Source: an uncultured Oscillospiraceae bacterium (GTDB lineage Bacteria > Bacillota > Clostridia > Oscillospirales > Oscillospiraceae). From it: a stretch of DNA of 37,398 nucleotides. Positions 3,717-10,640 of this stretch are shown piece by piece (positions within the stretch are counted from its first letter, which is position 1; every line of letters begins with the position of its first letter). The position numbers and the translations under genes are program-made. The DNA is taken from contig CAZDXX010000001.1 of assembly GCA_964509595.1 (NCBI GenBank), positions 1-37,398 of the forward strand, written 5' to 3'. Below the pieces are notes generated by a model. It worked only from the letters and a program-made list of their open reading frames with translations. It made no database searches and had not been told where the DNA came from.

Positions 3717-5099
3717 TTAAAATCCAAAATAACGCACTGCATTTTTCCAGCAGATATCTTCGACCAAAGCTCCCAAAGTTTCCATATCGCCGGGATACTC
3801 GCCTTGTTCGACCAATTGGCCAATCTTATTACATAGGATGCGGCGGAAATATTCATGGCGCGCAAAGGAAGTAAAACTGCGGGAGTCCGTCAGCATGCCT
3901 ACGGAACCGGACAACAGGCCGGTCTCCATCAGCTGATCCAGCTGCTCAGAAATACCACGATAATGGTCAAGCAGCCACCAGGCTGCACCATACTGCACTT
4001 TGGCACCATTAGCAGCAAAGTTGACCGCCATGGTGGACAAAACTGCGCTGTCCGCGGGATTCATGTTATAGAGGATCGTTTTGGGCAGCGCATCGTTCGC
4101 TTCCAAATCACTCAGGAACGCACTGAGCAGGAAAGGATCCGTGGTCTCACCAATACTGTCGCCGCCGGCATCGGCGCCGAAGGCCGCAATCAGCTTTGGA
4201 GAATTATTACGGATGGGACCCAGGTGCAGCTGCATGACCAGATCCCGGCGAGTGTACTCCTCTGCCAGGAAGCGAAGCAGAGCCCCCTGATACACAGCAA
4301 CCTCTTCCTCTGTCAGTTCAGCACCCGACAAGGCTTTTTCCATGACAGGCGCCGGATCACCCACCGCATAACGGAAGTGAATAAATGCGTGGTCAGTTAC
4401 ACGGCACCCAACCTGACAGAAGAAGTCCAGAGACTTGCTTAGCGCACTCAGCAGGCTGTTCCAGTCGGTAATCACACCGTAGCGAGCACCCAACTGCTCA
4501 ATGGCGGTCATCCAGGGTAGCTGATCAATGTGCAGAAAACGATCCGGACGGAAAGAAGGCAGTGTGCGGAAGGGAATTTCCTTCTCCTCTGCCAGCTTAT
4601 AATGCCACTCCAACGTATCTGCAGGGTCATCCGTGGTGCAAAGAATCTGCACCTTTGCCTTAGCCAGCAAAGATACAGCGTCAAAACCGTCACTACGCAG
4701 CATCTCGCAGGTTTTGTCCCAAATCTCTTTTGCAGTCTTCTCAGTCAGAGGTGTATCAATATCGAAGTACCGACGCAGCTCCAAATGGGCCCAGTGATAA
4801 ACCGGGTTTCCAATCAGGCGGGGCATGATTTGGGCAAAGCGGAAAAACTTTTCGTAATCCGGTGCATCGCCGGTGATGTACTCTTCCGGCACCCCACATA
4901 CACGCATACAGCGCCACTTATAGTGATCGGCCTCCAGCCAAAGCTGAGTCAGGTTCTCATAGCGGCGGCGCTGGAAAATCTCGCGGGGATTCAGGTGGTT
5001 GTGATAGTCGATGATGGGACACTCTCTTGCATGCTCGTGGTACAGCCAATAGGCAGTCTCACTGGTCAGCAGGAAGCCCTTATTCATAAAAGGTTTCAT
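3717..5099 (-). CDS. uxaC: Glucuronate isomerase (uronate isomerase)
   Basis: The N-terminus FMNKGFLLTSETAYWLYHEHARECPIIDYHNHLNPREI and overall length (460 aa) are typical of UxaC. Start set at ATG 5099, 1 nt after the upstream stop. The 30-codon extension of the raw ORF overlaps the upstream gene. Confidence 0.9.
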   Translation of the reverse strand: MKPFMNKGFLLTSETAYWLYHEHARECPIIDYHNHLNPREIFQRRRYENLTQLWLEADHYKWRCMRVCGVPEEYITGDAPDYEKFFRFAQIMPRLIGNPVYHWAHLELRRYFDIDTPLTEKTAKEIWDKTCEMLRSDGFDAVSLLAKAKVQILCTTDDPADTLEWHYKLAEEKEIPFRTLPSFRPDRFLHIDQLPWMTAIEQLGARYGVITDWNSLLSALSKSLDFFCQVGCRVTDHAFIHFRYAVGDPAPVMEKALSGAELTEEEVAVYQGALLRFLAEEYTRRDLVMQLHLGPIRNNSPKLIAAFGADAGGDSIGETTDPFLLSAFLSDLEANDALPKTILYNMNPADSAVLSTMAVNFAANGAKVQYGAAWWLLDHYRGISEQLDQLMETGLLSGSVGMLTDSRSFTSFARHEYFRRILCNKIGQLVEQGEYPGDMETLGALVEDICWKNAVRYFGF

Positions 5100-5100
5100 A

Positions 5101-6375
5101 TCAGAACTTCTCCCGGTTGATCCACAGTCCCAGAGCAGGATTGGGAACGTAATAGATTTCCTCGCCATCAGGCAGAGTGTTGTAGCCATACCGCAGCTTC
5201 TCAGGATCGTAGCGCTTCACCATCTCGTCGTAGTCAGCAGCCTGGAAGCCAACGCCTTCCACTTCCTCCTTGGTGATGTTCTTCACCGCATAAGTAATGG
5301 TGAAACGATCATCAGAGGATCCATGGATCAGATGAGCAGCAGCACCCATATTGTCACGCAGGTCCTGATTCTCGGGTTTTTCAAACTGCTCCAGCGTATT
5401 AAGGCGACCACGGTAGCCGTACTTACGAATCAGCAGGTCTACCTGAGGATCCTCGCCAAAACGCTCAATACCGGGAGCCAGAACCAGCAGTTCACCACCA
5501 TCAGCAATTGCCATACGGGTGCGGTAAACAGACTTATTACCCAGCCATGTGCTCTTGAACTCATCGGGAGTCAGATAGACCACACACTTTTTGATGCCGG
5601 TGTCCACGAAGTCAATGTTCTTCTCCTGAGCGAGTTCAATAGCAGCCTCCAGCACCTTGCGGGTATCGCCAATAAACAAACCATGGGTATGAATATTGCC
5701 GCCGGGAGCAGTACAGACGGTAAGTACAAACAGGATGGGGCGCTCGTTCAGGAAGTGCTCCATGCCATAGTCAAAAATCTTACGCACCGGGGTGTGATCT
5801 TTGCCCATCATGCGCTCCATGCCATAGACAGCCCCCACCATGTGGCTCTTGTTGATCATATCACTGCCGCCCACGCCTACAAACAGGTTCTTGGAGTGGT
5901 TAGCCATGCCAATGACCTCGTGCGGAACCACCTGGCCCGGAGAGATGATCAAATCATACTTCTCATCCATGACCATGCGATTGATCTCAACGCTGACAGG
6001 ATCATGCCACAGACCCTCGGTGATCTCCTCCAAATACTCGGCAGGTACTTCACCGATTTTCATAACGTCAGTACGCCAGTTATGGGGAATAAATTTCTCG
6101 TAGGGGATGTCACCAAACATAACGGAAGCTTCCTCTTCCGTGACAGGCACATGGGTGCCCAGCGCAGGAAGGATATCCACTTCACAGCCCATTTCTACCA
6201 ACGCATGATAGTAGACATTGGTAATATACCCGGCATTGGAATGGAAACGAGTAAAATCAGGTGGAATGATCAAAACATTCTTTAACGTGCGGCCTTCCAA
6301 ACTGGCCAGAAGTGCCTCACGAATCTCTTCCCTACTCAGTCCCTGTTCGCTTTTTGCATAAACAAAGTTCTCCAT
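5101..6375 (-). CDS. LarA-family (lactate racemase-like, nickel-pincer cofactor dependent) protein; candidate aldonate 2-epimerase
   Basis: 424 aa, the same length as L. plantarum LarA as I recall it. Blocks that align by eye to LarA functional motifs: PPDFTR (LarA SDHTR), LGTHVP (GFHRP, His108), VVPHEVIGMANHSKN (ESHFFAGFSGGRK, His174 and Lys184), INKSHM (MANHS, His200). Confidence 0.7.
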   Translation of the reverse strand: MENFVYAKSEQGLSREEIREALLASLEGRTLKNVLIIPPDFTRFHSNAGYITNVYYHALVEMGCEVDILPALGTHVPVTEEEASVMFGDIPYEKFIPHNWRTDVMKIGEVPAEYLEEITEGLWHDPVSVEINRMVMDEKYDLIISPGQVVPHEVIGMANHSKNLFVGVGGSDMINKSHMVGAVYGMERMMGKDHTPVRKIFDYGMEHFLNERPILFVLTVCTAPGGNIHTHGLFIGDTRKVLEAAIELAQEKNIDFVDTGIKKCVVYLTPDEFKSTWLGNKSVYRTRMAIADGGELLVLAPGIERFGEDPQVDLLIRKYGYRGRLNTLEQFEKPENQDLRDNMGAAAHLIHGSSDDRFTITYAVKNITKEEVEGVGFQAADYDEMVKRYDPEKLRYGYNTLPDGEEIYYVPNPALGLWINREKF

Positions 6376-9543: not shown

Positions 9544-9560
9544 TGTGTAGTGCCTCCTTA

Positions 9561-10640
9561 TTAGCGCTGGACGCGGGCATTGCCGGCGTAGATGTCCCAG
9601 ATTTGCTTCTCGTCAGCAGGTTGGGCATAGTCATTCAGGCTGGTGGCAGCCAGCACACCGCTGGCCCAGCCAAACTGAAGGCACTTTTCGGGCTCCCAAC
9701 CGGAGATCAAGCCATACAGCAGGCCGCCGGTAAAGCCGTCACCGCCACCGATGCGATCCATGACAGGAATGGGACGGGGCTCTTCCACGCACCACTCGCC
9801 ATCTGCATGGAGCAGGCAGCCCCACAGATGCTCGTTGGCGCTGATGACCTGGCGCAGGGTGGTACCATAAACCTTGGCATTGGGATACTTGACCATGACC
9901 TCAGCGATCATACCCTTGAAGCTTTCAATCTTGGAGGACAGATCCTTGCCGCCAGCCTCGGGGCCCTTGAAGCCCAGGCACAGCTGGAAGTCTTCTTCGT
10001 TGCCGACCAGAACGTCAGCCACGGATGCAATCTGGTGGAACGCCTCATGAAGTTCCTCCTCACGGCCCTTCCAGAAGGTGGCGCGGTGGTTCAGGTCGAA
10101 ACTGACCAGAGTGCCGTACTTCTTGGCAGCTTTGGCGCACTCCAGACAGAAAGTGGTAGTGCTTTCACTCATGGCAGCGATCAGGCCGGAAATATGCAGA
10201 ATACCCACACCTTCCTGACCAAAGATGCGGTCCACATCGAACTCGTCAATGGACAGAGTACGGCCAACCTCACCGGCGCGGTCATTCCACACGCGGGGAG
10301 CACGCAGGCCGAAGCCGGAATCAGCAATGTTGAACTGGTGACGGTAACCCCAGGGGCCGCCCTGATCCACTTCAACGCCTTCGTAATTAATGTTCCGGGA
10401 GCGCAGGTCACTCTTGATAAACTGAGCGATGGGGCTGCCCTTGACGAACTTGGTCATTGCCAGGCACTCCTTGCCCAGAGAAGACGCAACATTCAGCACA
10501 TTGGTCTCAGCGCTGGTGGCCTGCATGTAAAAATGATTGCTGGTATGAACGGCCATGCGATTGTCGGGAGTGATGCGAACGCCCATACTGGTCGGGCAAG
10601 CGATGGCATAACGAGTGTTGGCGCGAAGATTCAGTTCCAT
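9561..10640 (-). CDS. PfkB-family sugar kinase (2-dehydro-3-deoxygluconokinase-like; substrate not determinable)
   Basis: 359 aa with the ribokinase-fold C-terminal motif DRIGGGDGFTGGLLYG and N-terminal PTSMGVRITP, as seen in KdgK-like kinases. It is the first gene of the operon. Confidence 0.75.
   Translation of the reverse strand: MELNLRANTRYAIACPTSMGVRITPDNRMAVHTSNHFYMQATSAETNVLNVASSLGKECLAMTKFVKGSPIAQFIKSDLRSRNINYEGVEVDQGGPWGYRHQFNIADSGFGLRAPRVWNDRAGEVGRTLSIDEFDVDRIFGQEGVGILHISGLIAAMSESTTTFCLECAKAAKKYGTLVSFDLNHRATFWKGREEELHEAFHQIASVADVLVGNEEDFQLCLGFKGPEAGGKDLSSKIESFKGMIAEVMVKYPNAKVYGTTLRQVISANEHLWGCLLHADGEWCVEEPRPIPVMDRIGGGDGFTGGLLYGLISGWEPEKCLQFGWASGVLAATSLNDYAQPADEKQIWDIYAGNARVQR

Follow-up and report, generated by a model that had tools for sequence, protein, structure and literature searches.

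How would a bacterium use glucuronate when the operon that opens its breakdown carries neither the dehydratase nor the aldolase that usually follow? The question is raised by an operon on a contig of an uncultured Oscillospiraceae bacterium (GenBank CAZDXX010000001.1, assembly GCA_964509595.1); the whole 37.4-kb contig was analysed and is called the window here, and statements on absent genes cover that contig. Six genes lie on the minus strand in the order PfkB-family kinase, putatively acting on a sugar acid (9561-10640; 359 amino acids [aa]; PF00294), gnd for the decarboxylating NADP-dependent 6-phosphogluconate dehydrogenase (8092-9543; 483 aa; TIGR00873), Cof-type sugar-phosphate phosphatase of the haloacid dehalogenase (HAD) subfamily IIB (7260-8099; 279 aa; TIGR00099), short-chain dehydrogenase/reductase (SDR) of the D-mannonate oxidoreductase/fructuronate reductase type (6387-7235; 282 aa; NF006132), LarA homolog of group 18 (5101-6375; 424 aa; NF052594), and glucuronate isomerase UxaC (3717-5099; 460 aa; PF02614, NF002794). 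In gene order the spacers are 17, -8, 24, 11, and 1 nucleotides (nt), so that the first 8 nt of the HAD gene overlap the end of gnd and uxaC begins 1 nt past the stop of the LarA homolog. An earlier note on this DNA had described these six co-directional genes with their tiny spacers, the overlap and the 1-nt gap; coordinates, spacers and gene identities all stand after family matching.

In the classical Ashwell pathway, UxaC and UxuB are followed by the mannonate dehydratase UxuA, the 2-keto-3-deoxygluconate (KDG) kinase KdgK, and the aldolase KdgA. The upper part of this pathway is present in the operon. UxaC scored 583 bits on PF02614 and 529 bits on NF002794 (cut-off 387), and the SDR, with 441 bits, passed the cut-off (281) of NF006132, the model for D-mannonate oxidoreductase. 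We also considered the SDR as an IdnO-like gluconate 5-dehydrogenase of an idonate-type route, which was ruled out by the NCBIfam cut-offs (165 versus 279 and 135 versus 369 bits). Its start was placed at the ATG at 7235, the open reading frame (ORF) reaching back to a TTG at 7256; the orthologs in three related loci (L002-L004; L-numbers denote the loci described below) have 282 aa. As to the lower part, Pfam scans of every long ORF in the window found no uxuA, eda/kdgA, larB, larC, larE, or gntK. A tblastn search of the window with UxuA, Eda, UxaE, KduI, and mannitol-dehydrogenase-type probes from related loci gave one match only, that of the kinase half of an aldolase-KdgK fusion to the PfkB gene, with 29% identity. 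The lack of UxuA and KdgA in the window, already pointed out in the earlier note, is therefore confirmed by both searches. The product of gnd is a clear member of its family, with 764 bits on TIGR00873 against a cut-off of 427.

In our proposal, the operon specifies the enzymes of a redox-neutral route that leads from D-glucuronate to ribulose-5-phosphate (Ru5P), bypasses mannonate dehydratase and 2-keto-3-deoxy-6-phosphogluconate (KDPG) aldolase, and has the epimerase acting before the kinase; judged from sequence, this reading has about an even chance of being correct. UxaC would convert D-glucuronate to fructuronate, which the SDR would reduce to D-mannonate. The LarA homolog would then invert C2 to give D-gluconate, using a nickel-pincer nucleotide (NPN) presumably made elsewhere in the genome. 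The PfkB kinase, apparently derived from KdgK, would phosphorylate gluconate at C6, and Gnd would oxidatively decarboxylate the resulting 6-phosphogluconate (6PG) to Ru5P and CO2, with the Cof-type HAD as an accessory, probable sugar-acid-phosphate phosphatase. Such a route is redox-neutral because the reducing equivalent spent by the SDR is regained at Gnd, a property stressed by Valk et al. (PMC6978723).

The LarA homolog is the enzyme on which the bypass would turn. It is a full-length member of NF052594, "nickel-dependent putative hexonate epimerase" (631.9 bits, cut-off 500), a family that corresponds to Desguin's group 18, and it contains a Lar_N domain (PF09861, 50.6 bits). Its sequence shares 60% identity with Clst_2415, a C. 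stercorarium protein of group 18, and 26% with GntE1 of C. glutamicum; the match to the Thermotoga maritima GntE2 structure (PDB 4NAR) has 110 bits (E=7e-31). Residues were read from the 4NAR alignment and from a 26-sequence family alignment, according to the residue list of PMC7583248. The catalytic residues D40, H75, H152, and K281 (D72, H108, H174, and K298 in LarA) and the NPN-binding residues R43, K162, and H178 (R75, K184, and H200 in LarA) are all kept, and E153, V154, W277, A347, and H348 are conserved as well. GntEs carry E, V, A, and H at the specificity positions (PMC11770544). Defined as E and V after the catalytic His, W in helix 11, and A and H at the positions of LarA W358/T359, the GntE signature is found here within PHEV, STWLGNKS, and AAAHLIHGSS; it agrees with the rows for group 18 in Dataset S2 and with the group-18 pattern W-L-N-K-S ... 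A-A-L-I-H-S (definitions from PMC7583248 and PMC11770544).

In 2020, a hexonate was only hypothesised as the substrate of group 18 (PMC7583248). LarAH15 of Phytophthora nicotianae has since been characterised in vitro as a narrow-spectrum D-gluconate/D-mannonate 2-epimerase with a Km of 9.4 mM and a kcat of 111/s (PMC11770544, JBC 2024), and this activity has been shown only for the oomycete LarAH15 and for groups 19 and 20 (PMC7583248, PMC11770544). The cloning primer of LarAH15 encodes M-A-TLLFAE, which fits the internal MTLLFAEGSK of a P. infestans group-18 protein in the 2020 dataset. Because of this N-terminus, LarAH15 appears to belong to group 18, so that one enzyme of the group would be characterised. 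Taken together, the LarA homolog looks like an NPN-dependent epimerase of the GntE type interconverting D-mannonate and D-gluconate. An 823-aa relative, P0130, combines a group-18 LarA domain with a C-terminal domain of the N-acylglucosamine 2-epimerase (AGE) family, that is, two epimerase/isomerase folds in one protein.

How general is this gene combination? Relatives of the LarA homolog (E<=1e-10) formed more than 8000 clusters at 90% identity and 1193 representatives at 50% identity, and a scan of species-representative genomes gave at least 593 confirmed loci. They are found mostly in gut and rumen Clostridia, Sphaerochaeta, Christensenellales, and Mollicutes, and the carriers include Oscillospiraceae (Vescimonas, Faecousia), Acholeplasma/Peloplasma, and Kiritimatiellae. 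We analysed 85 loci, namely the best 80 of the at least 593, four exact look-ups, and the window, and annotated them by clustering of all ORFs and Pfam scans of representative clusters rather than by full gene calling. In 62 of the 85 loci gnd adjoins the LarA homolog. In 40 of the loci the LarA homolog has 5 kb or more of sequence on each side; gnd is next to it in 36 of these, a kinase of the same PfkB orthogroup in 31, and a PFK-family kinase in two more; a fructuronate reductase of the SDR or mannitol-dehydrogenase type is found in 26, UxaC in 15, and UxaE in 12. UxuA was detected close to the module in only two of the 85 (L015, L060).

The six-gene order of the window also occurs in L002-L004, L006, L007, L018, and L053, in unrelated neighbourhoods: L002 and L003 are syntenic with the window, whereas in L004, L007, and L018 the six genes come after those for an AraC regulator, a glycoside hydrolase family 2 (GH2) enzyme, and a transporter of the GPH type. 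Kinase, gnd, and LarA homolog form a core that is found in several phyla. The gene arrangement is thus far beyond chance. Table S1 of PMC7583248 lists SDR, 6-phosphogluconate dehydrogenase, ribokinase-family kinase, and UxaC as neighbours of group 18, without comment or pathway.

The kinase is less easily named. Its best PDB match is the KDG kinase TM0067 (110 bits), and it misses the cut-offs of the KdgK equivalog models by a wide range (NF041332, 88.5 versus 440; NF040938, 56 versus 400; NF052444, 22 versus 400); on NF041633, of which it matches the kinase half, it scores 163.5 against a cut-off of 700. An ortholog of it (57-100% identity) is present in 47 loci, in 46 of which the distance to gnd is 3-264 bp, and we found no linkage of the kinase to KDPG aldolase, UxuA, or KduD. 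Identification as an ordinary KdgK was ruled out by the equivalog scores together with the gnd linkage. In L046, a separate KDPG-aldolase/KdgK fusion, 29% identical to the kinase, stands in the same locus as the gnd-linked kinase, so the latter is a paralog with a role of its own. We propose that the kinase, KdgK-like but of a separate, gnd-linked orthogroup, is a gluconate (or mannonate) 6-kinase. Three further loci (L056, 676-1956; L063; L064) have a PFK-family protein (PF00365) and an HAD_2 phosphatase by gnd and the LarA homolog, in the places of PfkB and Cof-HAD; this may be a further displacement of the kinase or a mere neighbouring glycolytic gene.

Gene fusions bear on the same step. 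Four of the 50%-identity clusters (P0123, P0131, P0136, P0150) consist of a GntK/IdnK-type gluconokinase fused N-terminally to a group-18 LarA domain. They are 45-52% identical to the LarA homolog of the window, and their kinase parts score 124-180 bits on TIGR01313 (cut-off 114). The contigs coding for P0131 (L085, 8001-9767; L086, 5583-7349) have the order AraC ... UxaC - SDR - [GntK~LarA], with no PfkB kinase present. The position of these fusions after UxaC and SDR ties the epimerase physically to gluconate phosphorylation, and the absence of PfkB beside them suggests that the PfkB kinase of the window fills the same functional slot. In the literature searched we found no mention of GntK~LarA fusions.

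The five-step route in this order had been put forward in the earlier note, and each step now has independent support: the NCBIfam cut-offs passed by UxaC and the SDR for the first two, the group-18 score, the GntE residues, and the LarAH15 activity for the third, and the distinct orthogroup tied to gnd instead of kdgA or uxuA and the GntK~LarA fusions for the fourth. The part that stands less firmly is the sequence of epimerase and kinase, which is reversed in Lactobacillus suebicus, where the kinase comes first. Observed directly are the family memberships, the conserved residues, the linkage of the genes, and the fusions; inferred are the substrates of kinase and phosphatase, the sequence of epimerase and kinase, and the supply of the cofactor.

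Several observations weigh against the epimerase-first route. The characterised GntEs have a high Km for free mannonate, 9-120 mM (PMC7583248, PMC11770544), and L. suebicus extracts produced no gluconate from free mannonate when ATP was omitted (PMC6978723). The nearest characterised relatives of the kinase are KDG kinases. Besides the absence of larB, larC, and larE from the window, none of these genes was noticed in the flanks of the related loci; no hexuronate transporter or regulator adjoins the operon in the window; and the role given to the phosphatase is conjectural.

Some of these points would agree with a kinase-first order as in L. suebicus, which we consider a serious possibility although clearly not the favoured one. 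In this order, PfkB would be a mannonate 6-kinase and the LarA homolog a 6-phosphomannonate/6-phosphogluconate 2-epimerase, and the phosphatase would guard against dead-end 6-phosphomannonate when nickel or the cofactor is limiting. L. suebicus extracts do make 6-phosphomannonate from mannonate and ATP and interconvert it with 6PG, and a TM0442 homolog is abundant in the proteome of that species (PMC6978723). The high Km values fit as well, and phosphorylated substrates lay outside the GntE assays (the word 'phosphogluconate' occurs 0 times in PMC11770544). A KdgK-derived kinase may be expected to recognise the C4-C6 end, which mannonate, gluconate, and KDG have in common, and the tight integration of phosphatases of three families in 32 of the 85 loci, described below, agrees with a need for such a guard. 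On the other hand, the kinase to which group-18 LarA domains are fused is a gluconokinase of the GntK/IdnK type, and E. coli GntK is reported, as cited in PMC6978723, not to use mannonate. LarAH15, apparently of the same group, turns over free mannonate at 111/s (PMC11770544), and if the phosphatase hydrolysed a genuine intermediate, the result would be a futile cycle. We favour the epimerase-first order on account of the fusions and because LarAH15 turns over free mannonate.

If the Ashwell pathway were split over the genome, PfkB would simply be a KDG kinase, uxuA and kdgA would lie at other loci, and the LarA homolog, gnd, and HAD would share the operon but have a purpose of their own, such as the use of gluconate or another hexonate. 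KDG kinases are indeed the best family and PDB matches of the kinase, uxuA stands close to the module in L015 and L060, and in loci of Sphaerochaeta and Christensenellaceae the module has genes for KduI and for aldolase-KdgK as neighbours. We regard the split as improbable: the kinase reaches only 22-88 bits on equivalog models with cut-offs of 400-440, its orthogroup sits by gnd and not by an aldolase in all but one of the 47 loci, a separate true KdgK exists in L046, those two loci are the only ones of the 85 with uxuA, and GntK takes the place of PfkB in the fused UxaC-SDR-LarA cluster. Still less credible is epimerisation at the keto-acid level, in which the LarA homolog would turn fructuronate (5-keto-D-mannonate, a 2-hydroxy acid) into 5-keto-D-gluconate, the SDR would reduce this to gluconate as a gluconate 5-dehydrogenase, and phosphorylation and decarboxylation would follow: it is chemically allowed for a 2-hydroxy-acid epimerase, and the SDR does match gluconate 5-dehydrogenase models and structures (PRK08213, 164 bits; 1vl8, 112 bits), but the SDR passes the D-mannonate oxidoreductase cut-off and fails those of gluconate 5-dehydrogenase, as given above, and characterised GntEs accept mannonate (PMC7583248, PMC11770544).

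The phosphatase had been given no role in the earlier note. It is a generic Cof-type HAD-IIB protein (TIGR00099, 178 bits, cut-off 137), and its solved relatives in the PDB, such as YidA and BT4131, are generic, promiscuous sugar-phosphate phosphatases. We placed its start at Met 54 of the listed ORF, which gives 279 aa, the same length as the orthologs. Members of the HAD-IIB orthogroup (44-100% identical) occur in several lineages and at differing positions, directly next to either gnd or the LarA homolog; in 17 of 21 cluster members the distance to one of these is no more than about 170 bp. An HAD_2-type enzyme lies 12-64 bp from gnd in four loci, and a PHP-domain phosphoesterase is located between the LarA homolog and gnd in nine, possibly all of one lineage; a phosphatase of any of the three families occurs in 32 of the 85 loci. 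The phosphatase is thus a recurrent part of the module and not incidental to it. AraL, a promiscuous HAD sugar phosphatase in the arabinose operon of Bacillus subtilis, is thought to relieve sugar-phosphate stress. Like AraL, the HAD of the window would be a sugar-phosphate phosphatase within a catabolic operon ending in pentose phosphates; AraL is of subfamily IIA, whereas the HAD here is of subfamily IIB. We conjecture that it serves as a valve for relief or repair, removing, for instance, 6-phosphomannonate that arises from imperfect discrimination by the kinase, or easing an overload of 6PG or Ru5P. A more specific version would have it as a dedicated proofreading or relief enzyme for 6-phospho-hexonates, with the catabolism of glucuronide-derived glucuronate in abundant gut Oscillospiraceae depending on nickel and on a new triad of kinase, epimerase, and phosphatase; this we put forward tentatively, as rather doubtful.

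The neighbours of the module in other loci give some hints on its substrates. A GH2 glycosidase adjoins it in L004 (1054-3297), L018 (45-2285), L007, L010, L022, and L061, and AraC-type regulators and a GPH/MFS_2 transporter stand beside the GH2 gene in some of these loci. The GH2 sequence has N-H-K-G after the WNMFDF motif, which we take to be the NxK motif that marks beta-glucuronidases, suggesting that glucuronides are the natural feedstock of the module. In L001 (10001-17456), a lone LarA homolog, 90% identical to that of the window, is followed by LacI, KDPG-type aldolase, FGGY kinase, 2-hydroxyacid dehydrogenase, SDR, and lactonase genes; here almost the same enzyme stands in another sugar-acid context. 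The S component of an energy-coupling factor (ECF) transporter (PF12822) adjoins the LarA homolog in L036 (11364-11933), L039, and L062, which are Mollicutes loci and one Clostridium locus; its substrate may be a vitamin, a metal, or the precursor of a cofactor.

The borders of the operon could be placed with some precision. Upstream of it, directly past the stop (11131-11133) of a gene for a 167-aa membrane protein, is the terminator hairpin of that gene (11086-11121, minus strand; TCAGCCTTGAAATGGC-AAAC-GCCATTTCGAGGCTGA then TTTTC), which marks the upstream boundary. A sigma-70-like promoter candidate (11023-11050, minus strand; TTGACA, 16-nt spacer, TATCAT) follows about 380 nt upstream of the kinase start; with 11 of 12 consensus matches it is the top site in the region, judged by consensus match only. 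A riboswitch in the roughly 380-nt leader before the kinase gene was considered and dropped, as the leader matched no Rfam family at gathering thresholds. Right after the uxaC stop, a strong hairpin with a 14-bp stem and a weak T tract (3681-3713, minus strand; ACAGCCCGTTTGAG-ATTTT-CTCGAACGGGCTGT then TCTTAAG) is the probable end of the operon. The next gene, which codes for a flavin reductase (3101-3658), is preceded by a separate ribosome-binding site, GAGGAGG, and does not follow uxaC in L002-L004.

Two blocks of the window have no counterpart in the syntenic L002 and L003, whose LarA homolog is 96% identical: a P-type cation ATPase upstream of the operon (11766-14369, minus strand), and the flavin reductase with an SNF-family symporter between uxaC and a SulP gene (1496-3658), a pair with a common 20-bp bidirectional terminator (3032-3075). 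The remaining genes of the window are housekeeping genes (spoIVA, rsgA, pknB/PP2C, rlmN, rsmB, fmt, def, priA, gmk, yicC, and cdaA) and transporters. A complete tRNA gene (16233-16305, plus strand) lies between spoIVA and a short-chain fatty acid transporter gene, and another is cut by the contig end (1-53, minus strand). Long stop-free ORFs run antisense to three operon genes on the plus strand: 7993-9564 opposite gnd (523 aa, which exceeds gnd itself), 9522-10679 opposite the kinase gene (385 aa), and 5323-6285 opposite the LarA homolog. Such ORFs are also found opposite the orthologs in 78 of the 85 loci and can be mistaken for the genes when the longest ORF is taken; almost certainly they code for nothing and are a side effect of codon usage.

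A bypass from hexuronate to the pentose phosphates has so far been represented by one operon proposal in Thermotoga and one extract study in Lactobacillus, and the module described here is widespread. In the open literature searched we found no description of the PfkB/HAD version or of its spread in gut Clostridia. Since candidate beta-glucuronidases sometimes adjoin the module, carbon from host and drug glucuronides may pass through a nickel-pincer enzyme in common gut anaerobes. Through the module, candidate genes become available for two orphan activities: hexonate phosphorylation by a PfkB-type kinase and, possibly, the epimerisation of 6-phosphomannonate. As a redox-neutral unit the module is of interest for engineering the fermentation of uronic acids. 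It also brings to attention a recurrent phosphatase with a conjectured role.

The earlier note had called the route unconventional as an operon-encoded one, a claim that does not hold in view of two precedents. The first is the T. maritima operon aldH-pelB-gnd-uxaR-uxaE-uxaD-gntE-gntK, which is controlled by UxaR and induced on pectin (PMC3750489). A hexuronate-to-pentose-phosphate route in this species was proposed by Rodionova 2012, as cited in PMC6978723, PMC7583248, and PMC3750489, and the activity of GntE2 (TM0442, PDB 4NAR) was later proven (PMC7583248). Both operons join an isomerase upper pathway to pentose phosphates through an SDR, a LarA-family epimerase, a sugar-acid kinase, and gnd, and in the window, too, gnd, SDR mannonate oxidoreductase, and LarA-family epimerase share one operon, a linkage kept in related loci. 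They differ in the epimerase, which is of group 18 here and of group 20 in T. maritima (110 bits to 4NAR), and in the kinase, which is a KdgK-like PfkB protein and not of a known GntK family (FGGY or P-loop). The corresponding kinase of T. maritima is the gntK product, presumably of the FGGY type. The operon of the window has UxaC inside, lacks UxaE, and would therefore handle glucuronate only; it contains the HAD phosphatase, and its host is a mesophilic gut bacterium resembling Oscillospiraceae.

The second precedent is the hybrid isomerase-phosphoketolase pathway of L. suebicus, which was measured in extracts and for which GntK homologs are the kinase candidates (Valk et al. 2020, PMC6978723). 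It likewise leads from hexuronate through mannonate and 6PG to Ru5P and CO2, is redox-neutral, and does without UxuA, KdgK, and KdgA; there it is known from extract activities, with a mannonate kinase followed by a 6-phosphomannonate 2-epimerase, whereas here it is predicted from the genes. With LarAH15 and group 18, the LarA homolog has in common a score of 632 bits on NF052594, an identical residue signature, and 60% identity to Clst_2415; the activity is proven for the oomycete enzyme and predicted for the bacterial one. With the Ashwell pathway, the operon has in common the first two steps and a kinase from the KdgK branch of the PfkB family, and it differs in having no mannonate dehydratase or KDPG aldolase, so that carbon would leave as Ru5P and CO2 and not as pyruvate and glyceraldehyde-3-phosphate. 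The route is therefore known in kind, and what is new is the different epimerase clade, a KdgK-like PfkB protein that takes the part of the kinase, and a recurring phosphatase, for which three families are used.

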